From positions 1 through 38,834 of the forward strand of contig JBNKUM010000049.1 in the NCBI GenBank assembly GCA_050298595.1: a DNA stretch of 38,834 bases, in the 5' to 3' direction. Made by a program: the position numbers and the translations under genes. This DNA is from Gammaproteobacteria bacterium (GTDB lineage: Bacteria; Pseudomonadota; Gammaproteobacteria; GCA-001735895). Below are positions 163 to 38,317 of this stretch, piece by piece (the stretch's first letter is position 1; every line of letters starts with the position of its first letter). The notes below the pieces were generated by a model, which worked only from the letters and a program-made list of their open reading frames with translations, was not told where the DNA came from and did no database searches.

Positions 163-325
163 CTAGGCTCGAGAAGCGTGGTTTGGTTATTCCAAATGAG
201 CGACGAGCAAAGCTTCCGCTCCTGCTCACGCTCCTTACCTACGTCCATGTAGGCAAAGCTTCCGCTCCTGCTCACGCTCCTTACCTACGTCCATGTAGGC
301 AACAACGAGTGGCGGTTTTTAAACC
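163..325 (+). repeat. Truncated palindromic core repeat carrying two tandem 46-nt modules
   Basis: TAGGCTCGAGAAGCGTGGTTTGGTTATTCCAAATGAGCGACGAG is followed by exact tandem GCAAAGCTTCCGCTCCTGCTCACGCTCCTTACCTACGTCCATGTAG at 207-252 and 253-298, then GCAA. The left arm is missing, cut at CTAG. Confidence 0.85.
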
Positions 326-712: not shown

Positions 713-814
713 ATGTAGGTGTTAGGGCAAAGCACGACTCCAGGGAGGGGGAGGTACGAGCTCAAGGATGAGCGAAGGTAGGACAATGCAGGAGCTATTG
801 TCGAGGGCGAAGCA
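708..814 (+). repeat. Triple-nested GGA-hairpin modules (A-like > B > C)
   Basis: A-like fragment 708-734; module B 5' part 735-756 and 3' part 805-814 (matches the reverse complement of 37261-37308); 48-nt module C at 757-804 inserted inside B. Confidence 0.8.
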
Positions 815-3458: not shown

Positions 3459-4268
3459 ATGCATACTGTAACAAACCATAGTGATACTCATTCAAAGCGC
3501 GAGCCATTCTTTGCTAAGCAAAATCTGGCTCCATCACCTTCTGGCACTTGCCAGTTATATTCTTCACTTAACTGTAACCGTATCGCTCTCAAATGCCTGA
3601 AGATCAGGGGTAATCAATTCGACGAATCGTTAATGATGATGGCGGTGACTGCTTTGTTACAATGGTTCGACACACAGCTGCTTAAGCCAATCAAGATTGT
3701 TGAAAAAGACTCGGTTCGGGAAATCAGCGTTTTTGACTGTATCCAATATCAGCGACATGAGCCGTCTAAATCTTTCAGCAGCTCTCTGCGTGTCGGAAAA
3801 TCTGAAACCCGTTTGATTCCCTGCCAGGTTACCTTAAACCAGTTGCTGCCCGATCAATGGATGGAAGCCGTCCTGAGACAGGCAGTTGCAGCCGTGTATC
3901 TGAAAGAGATTCGGATGAATCGGGCGGTTTACCGATGTTTACAGGAGGAAACTATCAAGCTGGTACAACGTGACCCAAGATTCCAGCATTTGATTAAAAA
4001 CCTGCTGCCCTGTGCGCTCGCGCTGGATGAACAGTTGCTGTCGATTGCACATCAGTTGTTTCCACATGCTAATGCCAGCTTTGAGGATCTGACCCTGATC
4101 TGGCAAAACCTGCACGTTTATCAAAGGATGATTGATGAGGAAAACCCGTTATTACGCCTGTTTCACCTGACCCGCTTACAACGTTTGAAGTGTCCTGTGA
4201 GTAAACGCAGATCCTGCGCTACCCAGCAAAAGCAACCCAGAGGCCTGACTTTAGTGGCTGTTTATTGA
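3459..4268 (+). CDS. Hypothetical protein, probably 3'-truncated or frameshifted
   Basis: 269-aa ORF with GAGG RBS. The C-terminus looks out of frame and is followed by a 14-nt direct duplication TACTGTTGCGTTGG (4280-4293, 4295-4308). Confidence 0.55.
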   Translation: MHTVTNHSDTHSKREPFFAKQNLAPSPSGTCQLYSSLNCNRIALKCLKIRGNQFDESLMMMAVTALLQWFDTQLLKPIKIVEKDSVREISVFDCIQYQRHEPSKSFSSSLRVGKSETRLIPCQVTLNQLLPDQWMEAVLRQAVAAVYLKEIRMNRAVYRCLQEETIKLVQRDPRFQHLIKNLLPCALALDEQLLSIAHQLFPHANASFEDLTLIWQNLHVYQRMIDEENPLLRLFHLTRLQRLKCPVSKRRSCATQQKQPRGLTLVAVY

Positions 4269-4584: not shown

Positions 4585-4658
4585 TTCATTCGTCATTGCA
4601 AGGCCTGAAAAAACGCAGTTAGTACGGGCTCAAGGATTAGATGTCGTGAAGGTATAAC

Positions 4659-4961
4659 CCTGGATTCCGCAGTTGGACGAGTTGTAGTGCGTTTGAGGTG
4701 CTGTAGACCAAGGTGTGACGACGCACAATAGCGAGCTTTTCCAGGGAGTTACAAAGCTATCGCGTCCTGCTCACGCCCCTTACCTATGTCCCTATAGGCA
4801 AAGCTTCCGCGTCCTGCTCACGCCCCTTACCTATGTCCCTATAGGCAAAGCTTCCGCATCCTGCTCACGCCCCTTACCTATGTCCCTATAGGCAACACAG
4901 AGATACGTTTAGGAAACAGAAAGATACTCTCTAATACGAGCGCTCAACTGCGGATTCCAGA
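4659..4961 (+). mobile_element. MITE with IS1380-like ends carrying three tandem 47-nt modules
   Basis: Ends CCTGGATTCCGCAGTTG / CAACTGCGGATTCCAGA. Units start at 4752, 4799 and 4846, followed by CAA at 4893. No matching TSD. Confidence 0.85.
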
Positions 4962-5056
4962 TTCAAGCAGACTTTACCGCGTGATATGTGAACCGATGCA
5001 GAGTTTATTTCTAGAAATCTCATAGTATTAATATTGTTCAAGTCTGAGATATTGCC

Positions 5057-5703: not shown

Positions 5704-6768
5704 ATGTCACCCAACAATGGTAACAATAAGACACCCTCTTCATGGAATAGTCGGGCAAGTAGCTCAACCCCACCAGATCTTGAGGATCTGCTGCGCCAGG
5801 GACAGCATCGTTTACGTAATCTGATACCCAGTGGTGGTCAGTATGGCATCATTAGTATCTTGATAGTTTTCCTTATAGGTCTTGGCCTGTGGACATCCTA
5901 TTACACCGTACCCAGTGACTCTGTTGCCGTGGTTCAGCGATTTGGAAAGTACCTGAAAGAAGTACCACCAGGACTGCACTTTAAACTTCCTCTTGGTGTT
6001 GATATCGCTACTACTGTTCCAGTCAAACGACAACTTAAGCAGGAATTTGGCTTCTCGACACCAGGCGCTAAGGATCCATACCAGAGCCCTACAGATGGGC
6101 ACAAGGAAACCGAAATGGTGACTGGAGACCTTAACGCCGCATTAGTGGAATGGGTGGTTCAATACCGCATATCAGATCCGCAGAAATATCTTTTCGAGGT
6201 TAGAGAACCGAGCGCTACCTTGCGTTATGTTTCAGAGTCGGTGATGCGTGAAGTGGTCGGTGACAGAACAGTCGACGAAGTAATCACTATTGGACGTCAG
6301 GAAATAGAAACTGAAGCACTCACCAAGATGCAGGCTTTAACCACCAAATATGCCATGGGTATCAGTATTGATCAGGTGCAGTTGAAGAACATCAATCCCC
6401 CTGCCCCGGTGCAGGCTTCGTTTAATGAGGTCAACCAGGCTCAACAGGAAAAAGAAAAACTGATCAATGAAGCACGACGTGATTACAACAAGATCATCCC
6501 GCTTGCAGAAGGTGAAAAGGATCAGCGTATCCGCGAAGCTGATGGATATAGACTGAAACGAATTAACGAAGCCGAAGGTGATGTAGCAAGATTTTCAGCA
6601 CTATTGGCTGAATATAGTAAGGCACCTGAAGTGACACGACGTCGTATTTACATAGAAACCATGCAGGACATACTTCCCGGTATTCATTCCAAGATCATTC
6701 TTGACTCGCAGGCACGTAGTATTTTGCCCTTGCTCAATCTGGATTCTAAAAAGGAGTCAAAGCTATGA
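5704..6768 (+). CDS. hflK: FtsH modulator HflK (SPFH domain)
   Basis: PPDLEDLLR N-terminal motif, TM helix, VVQRFGK, MVTGDLN..VEWVVQYRI, APEVTRRRIYIETM. Confidence 0.92.
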   Translation: MSPNNGNNKTPSSWNSRASSSTPPDLEDLLRQGQHRLRNLIPSGGQYGIISILIVFLIGLGLWTSYYTVPSDSVAVVQRFGKYLKEVPPGLHFKLPLGVDIATTVPVKRQLKQEFGFSTPGAKDPYQSPTDGHKETEMVTGDLNAALVEWVVQYRISDPQKYLFEVREPSATLRYVSESVMREVVGDRTVDEVITIGRQEIETEALTKMQALTTKYAMGISIDQVQLKNINPPAPVQASFNEVNQAQQEKEKLINEARRDYNKIIPLAEGEKDQRIREADGYRLKRINEAEGDVARFSALLAEYSKAPEVTRRRIYIETMQDILPGIHSKIILDSQARSILPLLNLDSKKESKL

Positions 6769-8133: not shown

Positions 8134-8823
8134 ATGAGTTACCATGAACCTCACCGTTCACATCGAGTCGGCTGGCTACGTGCAGCAGTTTTGGGTGCTA
8201 ATGATGGTATAGTCTCAACAGCTAGCCTGATCATAGGTGTCGCAGCTGCAAACACTACACAGGAAAACATTCTACTTGCGGGCATCGCAGGTTTAGTTGC
8301 AGGAGCCATGTCTATGGCAGCCGGTGAATATGTGTCTGTCAGCTCTCAGGCGGATACTGAGAAAGCCGATTTAGAGATTGAGAGGATATCATTGGAAAAT
8401 GATTTTGAGTTTGAAAAACATGAACTCGCTAAAATTTATCGAGAGCGAGGACTAGATGGAGAGTTATCCATTCAAGTCGCTGAACAGTTAATGGAACATG
8501 ATGCATTGGGGGCACATGCCAGAGACGAGATTGGAATATCGCATGTCACCGATACTCAGCCGGTACTAGCAGCATTTTCTTCAGCGGGAACCTTCATCAT
8601 CGGTGCAGCACTGCCACTGATCGTAGCCTGGCTCGTATCAGGTACTAGCCAAATTCCTGCTATCGCCCTTTCTTCACTCATATTTTTAGCATCACTAGGC
8701 GCGATTGCCGCACGAGCTGGCGGTGCTCCTATGATTTCAGGTGCCATTCGGGTCACGTTCTGGGGTGCGCTGGCAATGGTGATTACCGCAGGTGTTGGAA
8801 GAGTGTTTGGAGTCACTATTTAA
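8134..8823 (+). CDS. VIT1/CCC1 family Fe/Mn transporter
   Basis: WLRAAVLGANDGIVSTASL and GAMSMAAGEYVSVSSQAD signatures. Confidence 0.92.
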   Translation: MSYHEPHRSHRVGWLRAAVLGANDGIVSTASLIIGVAAANTTQENILLAGIAGLVAGAMSMAAGEYVSVSSQADTEKADLEIERISLENDFEFEKHELAKIYRERGLDGELSIQVAEQLMEHDALGAHARDEIGISHVTDTQPVLAAFSSAGTFIIGAALPLIVAWLVSGTSQIPAIALSSLIFLASLGAIAARAGGAPMISGAIRVTFWGALAMVITAGVGRVFGVTI

Positions 8824-8858
8824 CCTATCCCTGTGCAGGACTCTAAACGAGATTCGCT

Positions 8859-10199
8859 TTAGCTGTAAAACATATCCCGATACATGCCTTCTGCCCAGGC
8901 CAGTCCCGCCTGCCCTGATTGTGGACTCCATTTTTCCATTAGATGTACACGATCAAATGCAAAGCTTTTTTCCTTATCATCATATTTGTAAAAAGCGATG
9001 ATACTCATAGCTTCTAATGGATCAATTTTTACGCCCGAAAAACACATAGTTTGCGGGCTACGCCAGTCTATCTGTTTCCCTTTAGCGTGAGCGATTATCA
9101 CCTCGGCTACATACTTCGCTTCTGAGTGTGCAGTGTTACCACTTTTGGAAAAAGGTTGAGAACGAGAGTCACCTGTAACATAAACATATTCATCGTCTAG
9201 CATATGATATTTAAAGGGATCGATGGCTGCTTCTTTTTGAGAGTTTTCGCTGTCTACCAGCCCAAACGTTTCAAGAATTCTTGCTGCCCTTACAGGAGGA
9301 TAAATAACGGCATCATCAAATTGATAGCTATCGAATTCGGTTTCAACTTCTTTATCTTCCACATTGATAGCTGAAATTTCAGCGCTGGACAGATAATCAA
9401 TAATATCTGGATAGTAGTCCTTAAATGCGCGATGGAATCCATCTGCTTTAATCCGAATTTCCGGGTTAGCATCTAGCAGCACTATCTTTCCCTTTATATG
9501 ATTTCTTTTCATGATAGCCGCAGCCATACAGGCCCTTTCATAAGGTGCGGCCATACAGCGATAATTGCCTGGTGGCACCGACATCAATAGCGTGCCCCCT
9601 TTAAAATTCTCCAGTTTATGCTTAATCGCCATAACTTCTGAGGCACTATTAAAACCCGCCGGGTAATTCATGCGAATGGCAAATTCATCTTCAGGATTTT
9701 CAACGCCTATGCGTGCGTAGTCATAATCAATACCTGGCGCCACAACCAGATAATCATATTGAATCGACCCGATGGTGGTAATAAGCTTTTTACTGACCCT
9801 GTCCAGCTCAATCGCTGTAGCATTCAAAAAAAGATAATTATTATTGTTTGCTGCCTCAACATAACTATGGGTTAGAAAATCCAGATTGATCTGACCAGCC
9901 ATCCAGACATTGCTGAGTGGACAGGAGACGAATTGATCTTTCTTATCGATCAGGATGACATCAAAAGCAGGGTTATATTTCTTCAGGTATTTAGCCATAG
10001 TGAGGCCAGACCACCCTGCCCCAAGCACAACTACTCGTTGACCTTTTTTAGCTGGTATTTCTGCCGGTGATGAATAGACACCTCCTATCGATGGAGTTAC
10101 GACACTGTCCTGAGCCAGACTTGAAGAACTGGTAAGCGTTGCTGACGCCAATGCTGTTGAAGTCTGTAAAAAGGTACGCCGATTAATTTTTTTGCTCAT
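8859..10199 (-). CDS. Flavocytochrome c sulfide dehydrogenase flavoprotein-like (FccB/SoxF family)
   Basis: Tat signal NRRTFL, GAGWSG Rossmann motif, SCPLSN, YRCMAAPYERA, KSGNTA and C-terminal TMCFS cysteine. Confidence 0.85.
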   Translation of the reverse strand: MSKKINRRTFLQTSTALASATLTSSSSLAQDSVVTPSIGGVYSSPAEIPAKKGQRVVVLGAGWSGLTMAKYLKKYNPAFDVILIDKKDQFVSCPLSNVWMAGQINLDFLTHSYVEAANNNNYLFLNATAIELDRVSKKLITTIGSIQYDYLVVAPGIDYDYARIGVENPEDEFAIRMNYPAGFNSASEVMAIKHKLENFKGGTLLMSVPPGNYRCMAAPYERACMAAAIMKRNHIKGKIVLLDANPEIRIKADGFHRAFKDYYPDIIDYLSSAEISAINVEDKEVETEFDSYQFDDAVIYPPVRAARILETFGLVDSENSQKEAAIDPFKYHMLDDEYVYVTGDSRSQPFSKSGNTAHSEAKYVAEVIIAHAKGKQIDWRSPQTMCFSGVKIDPLEAMSIIAFYKYDDKEKSFAFDRVHLMEKWSPQSGQAGLAWAEGMYRDMFYS

Positions 10200-10221
10200 C
10201 GCAAACTCCTTTAATAGCCGG

Positions 10222-10923
10222 TTAATTAAAGTCAGGGTTACGCCAGTTTAAAGAAGGCGCACGTTCTGCCTCTGGAACCGGGATGTAGGATACGTAATTG
10301 ATAATATCTTTCAGGTTATCATCTGTCATTTGATCGACTATTGCCTTCATTGCTGGATCGACAACCCTTAAACCAGTTTTGATATGGTCTATCTGGCGCA
10401 TCATATAGGGATAATGCTGCCCACGGAGTTTGGGGATGCGTTGGGTGTTGTTACCTGCTGCCCTGGTACCATGGCAGACAGCGCAGTGCTGCTTAAATAA
10501 CTTTTCACCATTTTTATACTGGGGGGTAGAGTCATTATCAGGACCCTTTTGATGATGAGGATGCATGGGTAATTTGGCGATATAAGAAACCACATCGACC
10601 AGTGATTGATAGCCGCCTATCGTTCTTTGCTGAACAAATGGGTACATCACAGGATTTTCTCTGCGTCCTTCTCGGATATCCAGCAGTTGTTTGAGTAAAA
10701 AGTTCAGATGCTGACCCGCTATTTGAGGATAGGTACCATCTTCACTGCCCCAGCCCTCAGGTAAATGACAGGCAGCACAGGTTTCATAGATAGCGCGACC
10801 ATTTCTTAAATCAGGTTGAAAAGTCAGCGTTATGGATACGGGTTCATCTGCTCTAGCTACGTTCAAATAACTGAGCAAAACGCCCCATACGAGCCACAAC
10901 CCTATATTCCTGCAAATCATCAC
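10222..10923 (-). CDS. Periplasmic diheme cytochrome c (c4/c553 type)
   Basis: Signal peptide, CAACH and CAVCH, PQIAGQH and PKLRGQH motifs. Confidence 0.9.
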   Translation of the reverse strand: MMICRNIGLWLVWGVLLSYLNVARADEPVSITLTFQPDLRNGRAIYETCAACHLPEGWGSEDGTYPQIAGQHLNFLLKQLLDIREGRRENPVMYPFVQQRTIGGYQSLVDVVSYIAKLPMHPHHQKGPDNDSTPQYKNGEKLFKQHCAVCHGTRAAGNNTQRIPKLRGQHYPYMMRQIDHIKTGLRVVDPAMKAIVDQMTDDNLKDIINYVSYIPVPEAERAPSLNWRNPDFN

Positions 10924-23743: not shown

Positions 23744-24570
23744 CTATGAACCTTCCCTGGAAACATAGAATATAAGGTTTAAACCTAGATTCCGCAGTTG
23801 ACCGCTCGCAATAGAGGTTACCCCACTGCTTCATAAACCATTACAGTTGATGTGTATAATCACCCAATCGGTGCATCCCGCTACGAACTGAATTACACGT
23901 TTGAGGCGGCGTATCTCTTCGTTGTAACTCCTTGGAATAGCTGGCTATTCCGCGTCGTTACGCCTTGATCTACACCACCTCAAACGCACACTTCAACTCG
24001 TCCAACTGCGGATTCTAGGTTAAAGGGTCATCTTCATCTGCATGAAAAAAACCCTGACTGTCCCAGGGCACCAATCGGGGAATATCTCCAACAGCGGTAT
24101 CACGAATTTCGGTATCATCAAATTGAAATTGAAAACGACACATTGTTGAACGGCACTCATTGCCAACCACGCTAACACCTGAATATTGTTTATTGCTGAT
24201 ATTGTTCATAATCTCGTTTTGTGCCCAGTTGCTCTAATTCGACATCTTGATTAGTATCAGCAGCAGTAGTTTCCTGTTAACTCTCCTGGCTCTCATGTTC
24301 TAGCTCAGTGTTTTCGGCTTGATTTTGCTGCGTAGCCTGTTGTAAGTCATTCAGCTGTTTTTGAAGACTTTTTAAATCTTGCTGCAAATAGGAAACTTCA
24401 TCCCGATACAGCTCCAGGTCTGAGTTATTAGTTGTGGTTTCTTTGGGTGTTGGTATGAAGGCCTGTGACTTTGTTGGAACAGAGTCGATATTATTTGTTG
24501 CAATCCACAAAATAGCCAGTCCACATATAAAGCCAATAATCGTAGCTGTAAATGTATGTGTAGTTTTCAT
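23744..24570 (-). pseudogene. Membrane-anchored protein gene (ECRSTMCR motif) broken by a stop, a frameshift and a MITE insertion
   Basis: ORF pieces 24277-24570 (TM plus coiled coil) and 24015-24209. Removing 23784-24019 plus one TTAAA restores in-frame ...HADEDDPLNLIFYVSREGS-stop at 23744. Confidence 0.75.
23784..24019 (-). mobile_element. Complete 236-bp MITE, IS1380/ISEcp1-like ends, 5-bp TSD, module-free core
   Basis: CCTAGATTCCGCAGTTG ... CAACTGCGGATTCTAGG (17 bp, 1 mismatch) flanked by TTAAA at 23779-23783 and 24020-24024. Confidence 0.9.
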
Positions 24571-25050: not shown

Positions 25051-25203
25051 TCTCACTTCCTGTTGTGTATTAAATGAACTCCATACTTGATCAAGAGACC
25101 AGAGATTTCAATTAATTGTGGTCGGGCTTTCACCGCCAATCTTTTGCCGATTTATCTCGGCGCAGTGGATGTCAATAATTATTCCCTCTTCACTCTGCAG
25201 ATG

Positions 25204-25393
25204 AACCCCGCTACGAGCTGAATTGCACGTTTGCGCAGGCGACCTCTGCGTTGCCTATAAGGACATAGGTAAGGGGCGTGAGCAAGACGCGGAAGTCTTG
25301 TAATTCCCTGGAATAGCCTGCTATTCCGCGTCGTCACACCTTGATCTACACCACCACAAACGCACTTCAGCTCGTCCGACTGCGGATTCCAGG
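25204..25393 (-). mobile_element. One-ended MITE copy with a single 47-nt module
   Basis: Colinear with about 23873-24019. Module between TTG 25251-25253 and TTG 25298-25300. End CGACTGCGGATTCCAGG. Confidence 0.82.
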
Positions 25394-25441
25394 TTGAAGC
25401 GCTACACTAGTGTCCTTGTGTCTATATAAACCCCGGCCCAA

Positions 25442-31535: not shown

Positions 31536-32207
31536 TTAAGCCTCAATAACCAGACCAAATTCACGACTGGTATCCTGTATCCAGAGCCAGATGTAGTCGG
31601 CAAAGCTTCGACGGATAACCAGTTCAAAACGCTTATCATCGATACGTCGAATGACCGCTGCACTCTTGGCAAAAACTGTGGACACAACCTTACCCACTGG
31701 AAACTGCTTGATATGTAGATCTACTGGCGTACATTTCTTCAATAAATCAACCACATTATCACCAGACAATTCCAGTACGGTTGAACCGCCACTACTGTTT
31801 ACCAGTGAGTAGTGCCCTGCCATCTCATCACGAAATTTTGACTCTATATCAAAGGCTTCCTGACCAGGTACCAGAATCAGCCATTCATCCGGTGAAATCC
31901 AGCGTATAGAATAATCGCCCTTTTCTACTGATGTTAGCGGCTTTAGTGGCAGCCTTGTTCCTAGCACACGTTCAACAGCTGCGAGCTGGTCTGCATTTTC
32001 CGGGTTACATCGAAGCGTCAGGTGCCCAAGTAGCTTTCTCTCACGCAGATGGATACCACCGGTTTTCGGCCCCTGTTTTGCCAGACTTTCCAGTTCTACA
32101 TGGTGTAGTGGAGACTGCCCCTGAATTTCAACAGCCGGTACCTGATTCATAACTGCTGCTTTTGTTGCTGCAGTCTGCTCTGCAGTCATTACCTGTTGAT
32201 CAGACAT
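31536..32207 (-). CDS. soxG: Sarcosine oxidase subunit gamma
   Basis: WISPDEWLI, KCTPVDLH, RRSFADYIW; probable start MSDQQ overlapping the soxA end. Confidence 0.92.
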   Translation of the reverse strand: MSDQQVMTAEQTAATKAAVMNQVPAVEIQGQSPLHHVELESLAKQGPKTGGIHLRERKLLGHLTLRCNPENADQLAAVERVLGTRLPLKPLTSVEKGDYSIRWISPDEWLILVPGQEAFDIESKFRDEMAGHYSLVNSSGGSTVLELSGDNVVDLLKKCTPVDLHIKQFPVGKVVSTVFAKSAAVIRRIDDKRFELVIRRSFADYIWLWIQDTSREFGLVIEA

Positions 32208-35200
32208 TTTGACGTTCCCCTTTTGGATCATAGAAGATGGGGCTGCAGATCTCAGCCTCAATCACGCGACCATCGGCCAGCGGGTAGTATACTTTATCAC
32301 CCATTTTATCCAGCCCACCCTTTATCACACCCATCGCAATGGAATGTCCGAGACTCTCACTCCAGTAACTGGAGGTCACATGGCCTACCATAGGCATGGG
32401 TATGGGCGCATCAGGATCAAGCACGGCCTGTGCACCTTCTGGAATGACTACCTTAGGGTCAGTGGTTTTTAGCCCCACCAGTTGCTTACGATTTTCCCTC
32501 ACGCAGTCCTCACGATTCATCCCGCGCTTGCCAATGAAGCTAAACGGTTTCTGGTTTGAGACACACCATCCCATACCCAGATCGTAAGGATGCATCGAGC
32601 CATCGGTATCCTGCCCGGTGATAATAAAGCCTTTCTCAGCACGCAGGATATGCATGGTCTCTGTGCCATAGGGTGTTAGATCATACTTTGCGCCAGCCTC
32701 AATTAACTGCTCCCACACATGCATACCGTAGTTAGCCTGTACATTGATCTCAAATGAAAGCTCGCCGGTGAATGAGATACGGAAAACACGTGCGGGTACA
32801 CCAGCTACGGTCATCTGCTTCCAGTCCATAAAGCTGAAATTTTCATTACTGAGATCGAAATCCGTCAGCTCTGCCAGCAACTTTCGGCTATTCGGTCCGG
32901 TAATGGTTGCGGTCGCCCAGTGGTCGGTGACGGTATTGAAATACACTTCCAGCTCTGGCCATTCGGTTTGATGGTAGAGCTCCAGCCATTCATAGACATG
33001 TGCAGCACCACCGGTAGTCGTGGTCATTACAAAATGGTTTTCGCCGAGACAAGCAGTAACACCGTCGTCAAACACCATGCCATCTTCACCACACATCAGG
33101 CCGTAACGACATTTGCCTACAGGTAATTTAGCCCAGGCATTGGTATACACACGCCCCAGAAATTCACGAGCATCCTTACCCTGGATATCAATCTTACCCA
33201 ACGTCGATGCATCCAGAATGCCGATTGAGTTGCGCACTGCAAGACATTCACGGTTGAGTGCATCCTGCATGCTTTCGCCTGCTTTGGGAAAATACCAGGG
33301 ACGCTTCCACTGACCAACATCTTCAAATTTCGCACCATGCTCTACATGCCATTTGTGCATAGCGGTGTAACGCTTGGGAGCAAAAAGTTCACCACAGTTA
33401 CGCCCGGCAATGGCGCCAAAGGTAACCGGCGTGTAATTGGGTCGAAAGATCGTGGTACCTGTTTCAGGGATAGATTTATTAAGAGCTTTTGCAGCTACGG
33501 CCATGCCATTGATATTGCCTAGCTTGCCCTGATCAGTGCCGAAACCCATAGCCGTATAACGCTTAACATGCTCGATGGATTCAAAGCCTTCGCGACAGGC
33601 CAGCTCGATACCGGCGGCAGTCACATCAGTCTGGTAATCGATAAACTGTTTCGGTGCCTGGGAGGTCGGCTTAACATGAGGAATATGGAACAGGCTCATC
33701 GGTGCATCCTGCTGTAACATCTGTGCTTCTGGCAGATCCATTTCAGCAGCAGCCAGTCCTATTTCGCTCAAGGCTTTTTGACCGGCCTCTAAACCCTCAT
33801 TGAGTGCAGCAGCCGTTTCATACTGGCCGTTTATGCCACCAGCGCTCAGCTGTTTCTGTACAGTAGGACCCGGCAGAAAACCAACTACTTCATCACTCCA
33901 TGTCGGACGACTCCCGGTGTGGCAGGACAGGTGAATAACCGGACTCCAGCCCCCAGAGGTGGCAACGGTATCTGCTTTCAGATTCGTTACCGGACCGATA
34001 ACCTTATCACCACTGCCGCTGATCGAAGCAATACTCACGCCTGATACACGCTTACTACCCTGCACTTCTATAACCGCAGCGCCGCATATAATCTTCAGGC
34101 CACGTTTGCGCGCGGCTTCAACTCTATCACCGCTGGAAGTCGCACGAGTATCAACTATGGCCACCACCTTACGACCGGCATCATCCCAGTCCAGAGCAGC
34201 CTGATAGCCATAATCGTTGGTGGTCATCACTACCAGATCATTACCCGGCACCACACCATAGCGATTGATGTAGCTGGATACTGCATTGCAAAGCATACAA
34301 CCGGGTACATCGTTATTGGAAAAAACCAGTGGACGTTCATGAGCACCCGTCGCCAGTACCACCCACTTCGCGCGAACACGATGCATGCGCTGGCGCACCT
34401 GATTGTCTGGCGCTTTGTCTACTAGATGATCGGTGCAACGTTGGTGAATAGTCAGGAAGTTATGATCGTGATAACCATTTACAGTAGAGCGTGGCAGTAA
34501 AAGAACATCTTCATAGCTGCTCAATTCTTCAACTACAGAACTCACCCATTCTGCTGCGGGTTTACCGTCCAGAGTTTCCTTGCTGCTCAATAGACTGCCG
34601 CCAAATTCATTCTGCTCATCGGCAATTATGACTCGCGCTCCACCACGTGCAGCGGTCAATGCTGCCGCCAGACCGGCGGGGCCTGCACCAACAATCATCA
34701 CATCGCAATGCTGGTTAACACTGTCATAGGTATCGAGGTCATTTTGCAGTGGCGAACGCCCCAGTCCAGCTGCCTTACGAATCATCGACTCATAGGTATC
34801 CCATAGAGATTGTGGATACATGAAGGTTTTGTAATAGAAGCCGGGGGGCATCATTTTGCCACCGACCTTACCAATGATCCCCATCAGATCATTATCGACA
34901 CTCGGCCAGCCATTGGTTGAAGCAGCAACCAGGCCATAGAATAATTCCTGCTGAGTCGCACGAACGTTGGGTACCTGAGTGGCTTCGGTAGCCCCTAGCT
35001 GCAAAACAGCATTGGGCTCTTCTGCTCCGCAGGCAATGATGCCACGCGGACGGCTGTATTTAAAACTACGGCCAACCACATCAATGCCATTGGCTAGCAT
35101 GGCAGAAGCCAGCGTATCACCCTGATAGCCCTGATATTCCTTTCCATTGAATATAAAGGTCAGCGGTTTAGTACGGTCGATTCGACCGCCGCTTTGCAGG

Positions 35201-35217
35201 CGATTTTTCTGTGTCAT
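32200..35217 (-). CDS. soxA: Sarcosine oxidase subunit alpha
   Basis: GDTLASAMLANG, RSFKYSRPRG, GAGPAG, HVKRYT..GFGTDQGK, GcvT-like C-terminus. Confidence 0.96.
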   Translation of the reverse strand: MTQKNRLQSGGRIDRTKPLTFIFNGKEYQGYQGDTLASAMLANGIDVVGRSFKYSRPRGIIACGAEEPNAVLQLGATEATQVPNVRATQQELFYGLVAASTNGWPSVDNDLMGIIGKVGGKMMPPGFYYKTFMYPQSLWDTYESMIRKAAGLGRSPLQNDLDTYDSVNQHCDVMIVGAGPAGLAAALTAARGGARVIIADEQNEFGGSLLSSKETLDGKPAAEWVSSVVEELSSYEDVLLLPRSTVNGYHDHNFLTIHQRCTDHLVDKAPDNQVRQRMHRVRAKWVVLATGAHERPLVFSNNDVPGCMLCNAVSSYINRYGVVPGNDLVVMTTNDYGYQAALDWDDAGRKVVAIVDTRATSSGDRVEAARKRGLKIICGAAVIEVQGSKRVSGVSIASISGSGDKVIGPVTNLKADTVATSGGWSPVIHLSCHTGSRPTWSDEVVGFLPGPTVQKQLSAGGINGQYETAAALNEGLEAGQKALSEIGLAAAEMDLPEAQMLQQDAPMSLFHIPHVKPTSQAPKQFIDYQTDVTAAGIELACREGFESIEHVKRYTAMGFGTDQGKLGNINGMAVAAKALNKSIPETGTTIFRPNYTPVTFGAIAGRNCGELFAPKRYTAMHKWHVEHGAKFEDVGQWKRPWYFPKAGESMQDALNRECLAVRNSIGILDASTLGKIDIQGKDAREFLGRVYTNAWAKLPVGKCRYGLMCGEDGMVFDDGVTACLGENHFVMTTTTGGAAHVYEWLELYHQTEWPELEVYFNTVTDHWATATITGPNSRKLLAELTDFDLSNENFSFMDWKQMTVAGVPARVFRISFTGELSFEINVQANYGMHVWEQLIEAGAKYDLTPYGTETMHILRAEKGFIITGQDTDGSMHPYDLGMGWCVSNQKPFSFIGKRGMNREDCVRENRKQLVGLKTTDPKVVIPEGAQAVLDPDAPIPMPMVGHVTSSYWSESLGHSIAMGVIKGGLDKMGDKVYYPLADGRVIEAEICSPIFYDPKGERQNV

Positions 35218-35229
35218 TATTCCGCTCCC

Positions 35230-35514
35230 TTAGTCGGCTACTACAGAAGGCTGTTCACCAACCTTGTAGACTTCTTTGATTTCGTAGGTCTGGGTGTCAC
35301 GAGTCATGTTAAAGAACTTACGACAACCGGCAGCATGCACCCATAATTCGTGATGCAATCCTCGAGGGTTTTTGCGGAAGAACAGGAACTCGCCCCACTC
35401 TTTATCAGAACAGGCTTCTGGATCCAGAGGTCTTGCAATATGCGCCTGACCTGCCGGATGAAACTCTTCTTCTTCGCGATATTCTGCACAGTGCGGGCAG
35501 TAGATATGAAACAT
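35230..35514 (-). CDS. soxD: Sarcosine oxidase subunit delta
   Basis: CPHC...HELWVHAAGCRKFFN zinc site. Confidence 0.95.
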   Translation of the reverse strand: MFHIYCPHCAEYREEEEFHPAGQAHIARPLDPEACSDKEWGEFLFFRKNPRGLHHELWVHAAGCRKFFNMTRDTQTYEIKEVYKVGEQPSVVAD

Positions 35515-35530
35515 AGTATTAGTTCTCCCT

Positions 35531-36784
35531 TTAGTGGGCTACGCCAGCAGCGCCGTGCTCATCGATAAGCGCGCCGTTGTGGAATCGAAACATAGAGAAT
35601 GGCTCGGCTAAGGGGTGCATCTCACCCTTTGCCAGACAGGCTGCAAAAACGTTACCGGAACCTGGTGTCGCCTTGAATCCGCCGGTTCCCCAACCACAGT
35701 TAAAAAACAGGTTATTAACTGGCGTCTTACTCATGATAGGACAGGCATCTGGACAGGTATCGACAATACCGCCCCATTGACGATTCATGCGCACCCGACT
35801 AAAGATGGGGAAGAGTTCAACAATCGCCTGAACGGTATGCTCAATAGTCGGGTATGAACCGCGTTGGCCATAACCGTTATAACCATCGATACCAGCACCA
35901 ATCACCAGGTCGCCTTTATCTGACTGGCTGACATAGCCATGCACCTGATTCGACATCACGACCGTATTTAGTATCGGTTTGATCGGTTCAGACACCAGAG
36001 CCTGCAGGGGATGTGATTCCAGAGGTAACTCGAAACCGGCCATCTTTGCCACCACTCCCGAATTACCGGCCACTACGCTACCTACACGGTCAGCTTTAAT
36101 CTCGCCATAACGATTTGTGTTTACACCGGTAATAGTGCCATCCTCAATAATCAGTCCCGTGACTTCGGTTTGCTGAATCAGATCCACGCCGTAGGAATCA
36201 GCACCACGAGCAAAGCCCCAGGCAACAGCATCATGCCGTGCCACACCACCGCGTGGTTGCCAGGATGCACCCAACACGGGATAACGTGTGTTCGCAGAAC
36301 AATCCATATGCGGCACGATTTCTTTAATCTGCTGCGCATCCAGAACTTCACCATCGATGCCATTAAGACGATTAGCATTCACCCGGCGTTGAATATCACG
36401 CATATCCTGCAGAGTATGCCCCAGATTCAATACGCCACGTTGTGAGAACATCACGTTATAGTTGAGGTCCTGAGACAGGCCTTCCCACAACTTCATAGAA
36501 TGTTCATACAGGTGAGCCGATTCATCCCAAAGATAGTTAGAACGCACGATGGTGGTGTTACGCGCGGTGTTACCGCCACCCAGATAGCCCTTCTCAATCA
36601 CTGCAACATTAGTCACACCGTGCTCTTTAGCTAGATAGTAAGCTGTTGCCAGGCCATGACCGCCGCCACCGATAATGATCACATCATATTTCTTCTTCGG
36701 AGTCGGATTTCGCCATACGCGCTGCCAGTTTTCATGGTGCGTCAGACTGTGTTTGAGCAGTCCAAAACCTGAATAACGTTGCAT
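35531..36784 (-). CDS. soxB: Sarcosine oxidase subunit beta
   Basis: [45 protein letters not shown]. Confidence 0.96.
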
Positions 36785-37097: not shown

Positions 37098-37152
37098 AAG
37101 TGATCTATAGTTTATCTGCACATATCTGGCGAGTGATTATTAACAGTTCAAA

Positions 37153-37395
37153 CCTGGATTCCGAAGTTGGACGAGTTGTAGTGCGTTTGAGGTAGTGTAG
37201 GTCAAGGCTACGACGCGGAATAGCGAGCTATTCCAAGGAGTTACAAGTCCTGTCGCGTCCTCGGCTCGGGCATCCTGCTTCGCCCTACCTCCTCCCTCCC
37301 TGGAGTCGTGCTCACGCCCCTTACCTATGTCCTTATAGGCAAGGCTTCCGCGTCCTGCTCACGCCCCTTACCTATGTCCTTATAGGCATCACAGA
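37153..37395 (+). mobile_element. One-ended MITE copy with two modules, the first interrupted by module B
   Basis: Starts CCTGGATTCCGAAGTTG. Unit 1 at 37244-37339 contains the 48-nt insert 37261-37308; unit 2 at 37340-37386. Confidence 0.85.
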
Positions 37396-37588: not shown

Positions 37589-38317
37589 TTAAAACTTTAC
37601 TACCGAATTACCTTCACTTATCCATCTGGTAATGCCATCTTTTACATTGTAGATTTTGTTGAAGCCGAGCTTCTTACTGAAATATGCAGCAGCACTTTTG
37701 GTACGGTTTCCTGTGCGGCATATAAGAATGACGGGCTCATTCTTATCAATTTCTTTAATAAAAGTCGGTATAAAATCCTTGTTCAGACCGCCTTTCGCAT
37801 CAAACAGAGTTAGCTTACGACTACCCGCAACAACACCGGTTTGCTTCCATTCTTCTTCTCTACGAATATCATAGATTTTTACGCCTTCGCTCAACAGTTT
37901 TTTAAGTTCTTCATTACTAATGTTGGTATAAGTAGGCACAACAATTGAAAGCAGCTCAACCTCAAACTTCAGGGTTGAGTCAGCCGGAATCAGGCCGCCG
38001 CCTACCTCGCGACTGCCATAAGCAAGCTCAGCAGGAATGATGAGTTCACGCTTACTGCCGACGTGCATACCAACAACTCCCTGATCCCAACCCTTGATAA
38101 CACGTCCAGCCCCGAGCTCGAACTCAAAAGGCTGATTACGATCAACGCTAGAATCAAACTTTTTGCCGTCCATTAACCAGCCGGTATAGTGAACCGAAAC
38201 CGTATCACCCGTCTGGGCAATAGCACCTTCGCCTTTTTGAAGCTCTTTGATTTCGAGTCCGGCAGCATAGGCAGTTGCCAATGACAGAGATAAAAATAAT
38301 CCAATGATATAACGCAA
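37589..38317 (-). CDS. Exported FKBP-type PPIase fused to a rhodanese domain
   Basis: Signal peptide (AYA/A); VHYTGWL, FDSS, VIKGWDQG, IP.ELAYG, FEVELL; then DIRREEEW..G and ILICRTGNRT, GITRW. TTG start with GAGG RBS. Confidence 0.9.
   Translation of the reverse strand: MRYIIGLFLSLSLATAYAAGLEIKELQKGEGAIAQTGDTVSVHYTGWLMDGKKFDSSVDRNQPFEFELGAGRVIKGWDQGVVGMHVGSKRELIIPAELAYGSREVGGGLIPADSTLKFEVELLSIVVPTYTNISNEELKKLLSEGVKIYDIRREEEWKQTGVVAGSRKLTLFDAKGGLNKDFIPTFIKEIDKNEPVILICRTGNRTKSAAAYFSKKLGFNKIYNVKDGITRWISEGNSVVKF

Follow-up and report, generated by a model that had tools for sequence, protein, structure and literature searches.

Short dispersed repeats such as the REP, BOX, ERIC and Correia elements are common in bacteria, and the reason for which their sequences are retained is mostly unknown. 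Here we describe module A, a repeat unit of 46 or 47 nucleotides (nt) with hairpin loops resembling binding sites of the regulator CsrA, in contig JBNKUM010000049.1 of a gammaproteobacterial assembly (GCA_050298595.1). The window is the whole stretch analysed, 38,834 nt, and corresponds to contig C49 of a genome (G000) of 5.49 Mb, 45% G+C and 119 contigs. The nearest analogues of the module are the BOX (A-Bn-C) and REP/BIME elements. Going by the pneumococcal study (PMC3049150), it shares with BOX of Streptococcus pneumoniae (boxA-boxBn-boxC) and with BIMEs a frame with inverted ends, like that of a miniature inverted-repeat transposable element (MITE), variable tandem internal modules and an intergenic position, and with BOX an enrichment between convergent genes and a predicted capacity to fold if transcribed. 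Compared by description, module A differs from BOX in belonging to another phylum, in occurring also alone in unrelated host elements, and in carrying a protein-binding consensus in its loops.

Other described systems are similar in part. Module A is repetitive, extragenic and palindromic, folds in single-stranded DNA (ssDNA) or RNA, and lies in a genome with many Y1 genes, all of which recalls the REP/REPIN-RAYT systems; tandem arrays and nesting are also on record for REP elements (PMC3116915). Unlike REPs and REPINs, its units are direct rather than inverted doublets, its conserved loops and variable stems are the reverse of the REP pattern, and no RAYT-type gene is flanked by it (in G000, 14-mers of module A come within 1.5 kb of 0 of 23 Y1_Tnp loci). 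PATEs, which derive from IS200/IS605 elements, lack terminal inverted repeats (TIRs), carry a hairpin towards each end and insert beside a fixed short sequence. Module A does the same, and departs from them in its much smaller size, the TTG on both of its sides, the lack of a consistent replication-strand bias, and the lack of a cognate transposase identified among the Y1 loci. A DDE-type MITE differs from the 47-nt unit in the TIR that the latter does not show at its ends. The SDR repeats of Nostoc punctiforme are mobile-looking sequences of less than 50 nt (21-27 nt) that nest in other repeats and have no known link to a protein-binding motif; by that description SDRs and module A are both shorter than 50 nt and nested, the SDRs being cyanobacterial.

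The small RNAs (sRNAs) CsrB, CsrC and RsmX/Y/Z offer a likeness of another kind, for in them, as in module A, several GGA hairpin loops with the CsrA/RsmE consensus stand on one strand in repeated units. In contrast to these sRNAs the modules are not a gene, having no GacA box, no signals in the elements scanned and no Rfam match, and they are dispersed (57 arrays) in mobile elements, in both orientations, as near-identical 47-nt sequences across orders.

Anatomy, borders and copy number of module A

On the purine-rich strand the unit follows a TTG and reads CCTA(C/T)-A-N-GGA-C-(G/A)TAGG, then TAAGG(A/G)GCGTGA, then a second site that begins with GCAGGA, and closes with GGAAGC(C/T)TTG. Tandem Repeats Finder reported a repeat with a period of 46 and 2.1 copies at 207-302 (100% matches) and one with a period of 47 and 3.1 copies at 4752-4895 (96% matches); these and the remaining units of the window are listed in Table 1. 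An earlier reading of the sequence, the original prediction, had named a set of hairpins and GCAGGA sites, and a hairpin scan found all of them on the purine-rich strand. The second site, which it had placed about 25 nt from the first, lies 24 nt away from GGA to GGA (GCAGGA at 218-225, 264-271, 4763-4770, 4810-4817, 4857-4864 and 37351-37358), and its mutation to GCAAGA in the copy near 25254 was confirmed; between the units of an array the GGA distance is 46-47 nt. The copies assigned to 37244 are present with the hairpin described, and their start moves to 37293, since 37244 begins adjoining B-type modules. A coding sequence was dropped as a reading because a period of 46 or 47 nt shifts the frame, as was a CRISPR array because the repeats have no spacers.

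Table 1. Module A units, related hairpin modules and host elements of the window
Feature	Position	Strand	Content or basis
Two identical 46-nt module A units (46-nt subtype)	207-298	-	First hairpin CCTAC-ATGGAC-GTAGG, TAAGGAG, GCAGGAGC, GGAAGCTTTG; repeat family D2
Extended hairpin stems of the 207-298 units	233-258, 281-302	-	GCAGGAGC at 218-225, 264-271
B/C-type modules, member of the general two-hairpin family	738-802	+	Hairpin scan
B/C-type ctcc-AGGGAG-gggg	738-751	+	Hairpin scan
B/C-type gctc-AAGGAT-gagc	760-773	+	Hairpin scan
B/C-type gacaat-GCAGGAGCT-attgtc	782-802	+	Hairpin scan
MITE-like host element	4650-4970	.	TIRs 4659-4675 (+), 4945-4961 (-); families D4-D6, D8
Three tandem 47-nt module A units in host element	4752-4895	-	Hairpins CCTAT-AGGGAC-ATAGG at 4778-4803, 4825-4850, 4874-4895
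Host element copy without module A	23774-24025	.	TIRs 23784-23800, 24003-24019; empty site ...CTCTTCG/TTGTAAC around 23921
Partial host element, filled site	25200-25399	.	TIR 25377-25393; families D3, D4, D7
Single 47-nt module A	25251-25300	+	Hairpin CCTAT-AAGGAC-ATAGG at 25251-25272; second site mutated to GCAAGA (25282-25289)
Partial host element, left TIR only	37143-37390	.	TIR 37153-37169; B-type modules ~37247-37310 and two module A units; families D1, D2, D5, D8
B-type hairpin CTCC-AGGGAG-GGAG	37292-37305	- (purine-rich)	Hairpin scan
Two tandem 47-nt module A units, AAGGAC loops	37293-37388	-	Repeat copies 37293-37338, 37340-37385; hairpins 37319-37344, 37369-37388

All these units belong to a very small (46-47 nt) repeat module that is intergenic, non-autonomous, discrete and amplifying. 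When G000 was searched with a 17-nt core at up to 3 mismatches, 96 matches were returned, and removal of 15 with less than 60% identity outside the core left 81 real copies, every one of which retains the loop GGA (81 of 81). In the 47-nt type, variation peaks at the second position of that same loop (G in 46, A in 8, T in 6 and C in 2 of 62 copies). No 14-mers in the 5.49-Mb genome are more frequent than those of the module, with up to 60 copies, and both this abundance and the conservation of the loop are far beyond chance. A 22-nt core gave 85 units in 57 arrays, none of them within a long open reading frame (ORF), the nine cases scored as lying in an ORF being frames of 81-151 aa from a crude ORF caller. 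With a looser core, 44 arrays held one unit, 18 held two, four held three and one held four, at a spacing of 46-48 nt; all multi-copy arrays are head-to-tail, so that inverted doublets are not the unit. Short-read assemblies are broken at these repeats, and contigs from four sequencing runs end there. Apart from these breaks, the contigs show collapsed depth at the repeats and joints such as one linking 206 to 299, which was dropped as evidence of an allele since it derives from module-free copies of the host repeat.

Most copies in G000 lie inside a MITE-like element whose ends are inverted (TTGAACCTGGATTCCGCAGTTG...); this end motif has 82 matches at up to 4 mismatches, and complete host elements measure about 300-540 nt. 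The element at 4650-4970 has roughly 35-75 genomic blastn matches along its length, and the host repeat around 207-298 has inverted arms that might be read as attC-like. The borders of the unit are given by a filled and an empty site, 25202-25365 and 23872-23989, which align pairwise with one clean 47-nt gap and TTG at the joint. Among 116 distinct upstream contexts (G000 and 113 loci elsewhere), position -3 is T in 108, -2 is T in 113, and -1 is G in 96 or A in 19; at the other end, the closing T-T-G is kept in 118, 109 and 83 of 120. No TIR was seen in the 47-nt unit on reading both ends. A 3-bp duplication could account for the TTG on both sides and would be indistinguishable from insertion after TTG.

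TIR-bounded host elements carry zero, one, two or three units. Within an array, units differ on average at 0.93 positions (28 pairs, 13 of them identical) vs 2.63 between arrays (2052 pairs; 43 positions compared), a contrast reached by 0 of 2000 permutations; because units within an array are more alike than units of different arrays, we attribute the growth of arrays to local duplication. In the congener G001 (locus L117) an array of six units corresponds to a 234-nt module-free interval in G000. As to neighbouring genes in the window, the GGA strand of 4752-4895 runs antisense to both of its flanking ORFs (3459-4268 and 5704-6768, plus strand), the copy at 25251-25300 is likewise antisense to its neighbours, and the GGA strand of 37293-37388 is sense to the flanking minus-strand genes, lying between an FKBP-rhodanese ORF (37589-38317) and a terminator-like site (36833-36808).

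The module is widespread. A degenerate pattern of 34 nt, matched exactly, was located in over 113 stretches of a one-genome-per-species collection, among them isolates of Pseudoalteromonas, Methylotuvimicrobium, Methylobacter, Rheinheimera and Thalassotalea and metagenome-assembled genomes labelled Chromatiaceae, Lysobacterales, Methylophaga, Nitrincola and others. The flanks vary by taxon and, where read, are again palindromic repeat elements (e.g., L057 1432-1650, with inverted ends). Of 400 genomes sampled from the class, 20 gave a BLAST match to a 92-nt query, as did 20 of 321 genera when G000 is counted. In the plasmid collection the same query found five records, four large Pseudoalteromonas replicons and one of Saccharobesus, and the one annotated match there has no feature beneath the matched span; no record of the phage collection and none of Escherichia coli was matched. 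No description of the repeat family was met in the literature searched (by sequence, and for CsrA together with REP, MITE or methanotrophs), a search that reached neither subscription journals nor supplements (for instance the REP list in Table S2 of PMC3116915). We conclude that the family is real and apparently undescribed.

Conserved loops, covarying stems and the folded strand

Sister modules in G000 and in the loci fetched from other taxa follow a common plan: stem 1, the loop A(N)GGA(Y), stem 1', 4-10 nt (often ..GTAGA), stem 2, the loop GCAGGAGC(A/T), stem 2' and CGAG. Both loops are fixed, that of the first hairpin with its closing pair as C-A-N-GGA-Y-G and that of the second as GCAGGAGCA, whereas 40 distinct modules show 27 distinct first and 18 distinct second stems. 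In an alignment (A1) of 32 distinct two-hairpin modules, drawn from G000 as well as other taxa, A6, G8, G9, A10, G12 and GCAGGA are invariant, C5 is present in 30 of 32, and the columns of the first loop spell C-A-N-GGA-N-G.

The original prediction held that the stems covary while the ANGGAN loop stays the same, and this is borne out by the number of first stems, by RNAalifold, which predicts the same two helices for A1, and by the excess of pairing over shuffled alignments. Of the helix cells in A1, 94.4% pair, vs 64.2% in shuffles (a value reached in 0 of 500), and 106 cells are changed on both sides, vs 34.7, figures that are biased upward because the examples were picked with at least three of five Watson-Crick pairs per stem; sliding the helices along A1 gave 26-53% pairing. 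A census made without selection on stems found C-A-N-GGA-Y-G 334 times outside long ORFs, with four further complementary pairs in 72 (50 distinct); inside ORFs the count was 12 of 808, and five permuted cores gave 2-18 (2-13 distinct).

A covariance model built from A1 (R1) matches the window contig at 759-801 (54.4 bits, E 2.4e-8), which is the first row of the alignment. At least 32 matches were obtained in G000, where 150 of 2219 candidates were scored, and matches were also obtained in 27 of the 150 further genomes sampled from the class, no two of these 27 sharing a genus. R1 matched 50 times in the closed genome G088 and at least 150 times in G362, and arrays with a 47-nt period are present in G088 and G140. 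We also noted in G088 sister arrays of at least seven units, each composed of a first hairpin with an ATGGAT loop closed by T-A, a second with the GCAGGAGCA loop, and CGAC.

The stems also bear on which strand folds. Non-Watson-Crick stem positions are G-T in 14 cases and A-C in 2 (binomial p 0.004), under a selection that treated both alike. In arrays the ..CTTG of the preceding unit lengthens the first hairpin to 10 pairs, including a G-T whose counterpart on the opposite strand would be C-A. Folded as RNA, the purine-rich (minus) strand of 204-302 reaches -38.7 kcal/mol (z -3.79), with both AUGGAC hexaloops exposed, and the other strand -29.8 (z -4.45); for 4749-4898 the values are -46.3 (z -2.2) and -26.9 (z -1.0). 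Taken together, the wobble pairs and the folds place the constrained structure on the GGA strand, as RNA or as ssDNA, and the compensatory changes, together with the wobble asymmetry, point to long-term constraint on a folded strand.

What may recognise the module

According to two studies (PMC4347634, PMC6849547), the consensus from systematic evolution of ligands by exponential enrichment (SELEX) is RUACARGGAUGU, with ACA and GGA invariant and the GGA preferably in a hairpin loop, and the optimum for RsmE is (A/U)CANGGANG(U/A). Measured against the motifs as quoted there, the copies at 207-298, which read ACAUGGACGU, fit the RsmE optimum at 10 of 10 positions, and the commonest form in other taxa, CUACAUGGAUGU, fits the SELEX consensus at 10 of 12, ACA and GGA included. 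We estimate the chance that both loops would match the CsrA consensus on one strand at about 1e-4 to 1e-3, a rough count that allows for other motifs. Two GGA sites can be reached by one CsrA dimer when they are about 10-63 nt apart, and both the 24 nt within a unit and the 46-47 nt between units fall within that range. It seems to us that recognition of a transcribed purine strand by CsrA or a relative could explain the conserved loops, and we put the probability of this at about one half; the reading is ranked first mainly because the estimate for a chance match is low.

The components that such recognition would require can be found in G000. A csrA gene lies at C91:9156-9311, and a divergent CsrA-family ORF of 66 aa on C87 (L002 604-804, minus strand) scores 57.7 bits against PF02599; it adjoins two response-regulator-like ORFs on a contig of 2.3 kb. 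The genome also has an Rsm-like sRNA on C115 (about 142,500-142,834, minus strand), with a GacA-box-like palindrome (one mismatch), a -10-like box, a length of about 170 nt, seven GGA motifs and an intrinsic terminator, and with two hairpins whose loops are AGGAC and AAGGAA. For the GacA box, here and in the module scan below, we used the palindrome that we take to be its motif. The Rfam models CsrB, PrrB_RsmZ and RsmY miss this sRNA, R1 does not match it at E <=0.01, and an end of the same MITE-like element directly follows it. Separately, the intergenic region downstream of csrA-tRNA in G000 (C91, about 8450-8900) contains several modules in GGA orientation, and the corresponding region of the congener G012 (L119 1300-1640) a MITE with two module A units; this may be a hot spot or a coincidence.

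If CsrA or a CsrA-family protein is the partner, the loops would have been kept since they are recognised on RNA. Wherever the purine-rich strand is transcribed, in an untranslated region (UTR) or by read-through, each unit would then offer a two-site ligand to one CsrA dimer, an array would act like a short stretch of CsrB/RsmZ-type decoy, and the amount of CsrA held, or the neighbouring mRNA end that is bound, would depend on how many copies there are and where they have inserted. Sponging or UTR control by the modules is what we would hypothesise. More tentatively, we speculate that module A is a self-spreading CsrA-decoy cassette, that is, a mobile 47-nt bidentate CsrA site that has moved horizontally across gammaproteobacterial orders, nested in other elements and multiplied in tandem. 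Were this true, a genome could hold some 150 high-affinity CsrA hairpins in addition to its one canonical Rsm sRNA, and their number and sites would tune the pool of free CsrA and place transcripts nearby under the control of Csr. Another possibility is that the element uses CsrA to protect its own RNA.

The original prediction, that the modules are paired CsrA-type sites, thus stands as regards the match in sequence and structure, the covarying stems, the presence of two csrA genes and local amplification; what does not fit is an unbiased orientation to genes and the conservation of all 47 nt. It had also been proposed that genomes with modules should always encode csrA. A csrA match was obtained in 18 of 20 carriers of module A and 23 of 27 R1 carriers, vs 348 of 400 genomes overall (a tally that includes four genomes flagged as unpublished, G063, G165, G319 and G331), and at that base rate the comparison has no power.

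Several observations weigh against recognition by CsrA. Beside co-directional genes in G000, module A arrays are sense in 12 cases and antisense in 12 (14:15 at the level of hairpins), the other GGA hairpins are sense in 16 and antisense in 21, and the sister modules of the closed genome G088 are sense in 1 and antisense in 6; one host element (G000:C1:47067-47602) has modules in both orientations. The whole 47 nt, linkers included, are near-identical in many orders, which exceeds what CsrA binding should require. A GacA box was found upstream of 0 of 228 modules (within 350 nt), no promoter-like or terminator-like signal appeared inside the two elements scanned (4650-4970 and 37143-37390), and Rfam searches of the window at gathering thresholds and of five loci at E <=1 were negative, with CsrB, PrrB_RsmZ and RsmY matching nowhere in the genome. 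Two R1 carriers, G156 (12 scored modules, 90% complete) and G161 (17, 73% complete), gave no csrA match, the four R1 carriers of this kind being 69-90% complete. Finally, Y1 (IS200/RAYT-type) transposase genes are present in 22 of 27 R1 carriers vs 67 of 123 other genomes (Fisher p 0.01), a comparison in which kinship and genome size are uncontrolled, the two 150-genome samples are assumed to be identical, as their listings suggest, and G165 is flagged as unpublished. In favour of recognition by CsrA, module A in other taxa is sense in 29 cases and antisense in 14 (p 0.03), several of these loci being Pseudoalteromonas copies and not all independent. A stand-alone sRNA gene of the CsrB/RsmZ type was rejected for lack of promoter, terminator or GacA-box signals and of a match to an Rfam model.

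Some of the same facts lead to a reading in which the hairpins are ssDNA structures recognised or nicked by a trans-acting enzyme (HUH/Y1, of the IS200/RAYT kind), the unit consists of a left-end and a right-end hairpin, and the likeness to CsrA sites is incidental. We consider this possible, though doubtful. An insertion unit without TIRs and with the fixed short flank TTG, its presence in quite different host elements across orders and the conservation of the whole unit rather than of the loops alone speak for such an enzyme, and near-identity across orders fits either recognition by a mobilising enzyme or recent spread. The 26 Y1_Tnp matches in G000, the enrichment among carriers of Y1 genes, whose candidate proteins measure roughly 230-340 aa, and the even orientation to genes in G000 agree with it too. 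Against it, besides the lack of module 14-mers near the Y1 loci of G000, module-type GGA hairpins do not systematically flank Y1 genes, and 3 of 32 R1 matches lie within 5 kb of one, where about 1.3 would be expected by our own arithmetic. Transposition of the IS200/IS605 type, through ssDNA, would be expected to tie orientation to the replication strand. In regions of G088 with a clear skew, 15 of 17 loci have one fixed strand on the C-rich strand (p 0.002, from a post hoc partition that omits 12 loci), but the GGA strand is on the G-rich strand in 42 of 81 cases in G000, 69 of 118 in G362 and 2 of 17 in G088, so that the bias is not reproducible; because modules ride in host elements, tests of a replication-strand rule mostly read the orientation of the latter. 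The agreement of both loops with the CsrA consensus would, moreover, be left to chance. Recognition by CsrA and recognition as ssDNA are not mutually exclusive.

The Y1 set of G000 is itself unusually large: many of its 26 matches have internal stops, and about ten are long (frames of 214-293 aa) and low-scoring. Another repeat of about 36 copies, with ends such as GAATGGCACTTACTTAAGC, is found on C21 (35712-35908, 39887-40035), C76 and C110 and flanks several of the Y1_Tnp genes. That repeat is a better candidate than module A for a REP/RAYT pairing, and a B-type module is nested in it at C21:35814-35842.

The modules might instead act on RNA through another partner or through structure as such, as Shine-Dalgarno mimics that hold the 30S subunit, as barriers to 3'-5' exonucleases or as RNase targets in UTRs. 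For BOX, REP, ERIC and Correia elements, similar roles have been suggested. Here they would draw on the Shine-Dalgarno-like strings (TAAGGAG, CAGGAG) beside the hairpins of the purine-rich strand, on the fact that both strands of 204-302 fold better than shuffles, on the copy at 37293-37388 in what is likely a 3' UTR ahead of the terminator-like site, and on a placement between convergent as opposed to divergent genes of 12:8 in G000 and 20:9 elsewhere; pneumococcal repeats are likewise reported to be commoner between convergent genes (PMC3049150). We regard such a role as unlikely, for structure alone leaves unexplained why C-A-N-GGA-Y-G loops are fixed over 50 distinct stems and why G-T outnumbers A-C, and for half of the G000 copies the mRNA would contain the pyrimidine strand. 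That the modules are neutral DNA, selfish or prone to slippage and perhaps captured from a Csr-type sRNA gene, with loops conserved only by recent common descent, would suit the divergence of G000 copies at only about 2.6 of 43 positions, the local expansion of arrays and the lack of function-linked placement in the orientation counts of G000, and is nevertheless improbable given that 27 first and 18 second stems share their loops across G000 and many taxa, that the 27 of 150 sampled genomes with the family all differ in genus, and that compensatory changes and wobble asymmetry speak for long-term constraint.

Whichever partner is involved, the conserved parts of this repeat coincide with the binding consensus of a global regulator, and there are cultivable carriers among the named isolates of Methylotuvimicrobium, Methylobacter, Pseudoalteromonas and Rheinheimera, such as Methylotuvimicrobium buryatense 5G, Methylobacter tundripaludum SV96 and Pseudoalteromonas distincta ATCC 700518; what reads a bacterial repeat is therefore directly testable in this case. 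If CsrA binds, dispersed mobile DNA would add to the Csr/Rsm network a layer that has escaped notice until now, and would offer a route to its quick rewiring. If it does not, the family would still provide a clean example of a mobile unit of less than 50 nt whose borders are defined, and would help in the search for its mobilising enzyme.

Genes elsewhere in the window

Between the repeat modules near the contig start, two overlapping ORFs (383-718 on the plus strand and 319-621 on the minus strand, within 319-718) have no Pfam match and are probably not genes. Beside this repeat-rich start, at 891-2440 on the plus strand, an AbiEi antitoxin-like ORF (891-1526) overlaps an AbiEii nucleotidyltransferase toxin-like ORF (1460-2440), which looks like a type IV toxin-antitoxin or abortive-infection pair. 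Ordinary genes are found at 8859-10923 and 31536-36784, comprising a flavocytochrome c sulfide dehydrogenase pair, two RND efflux operons, folB-folE and a four-subunit sarcosine oxidase operon.

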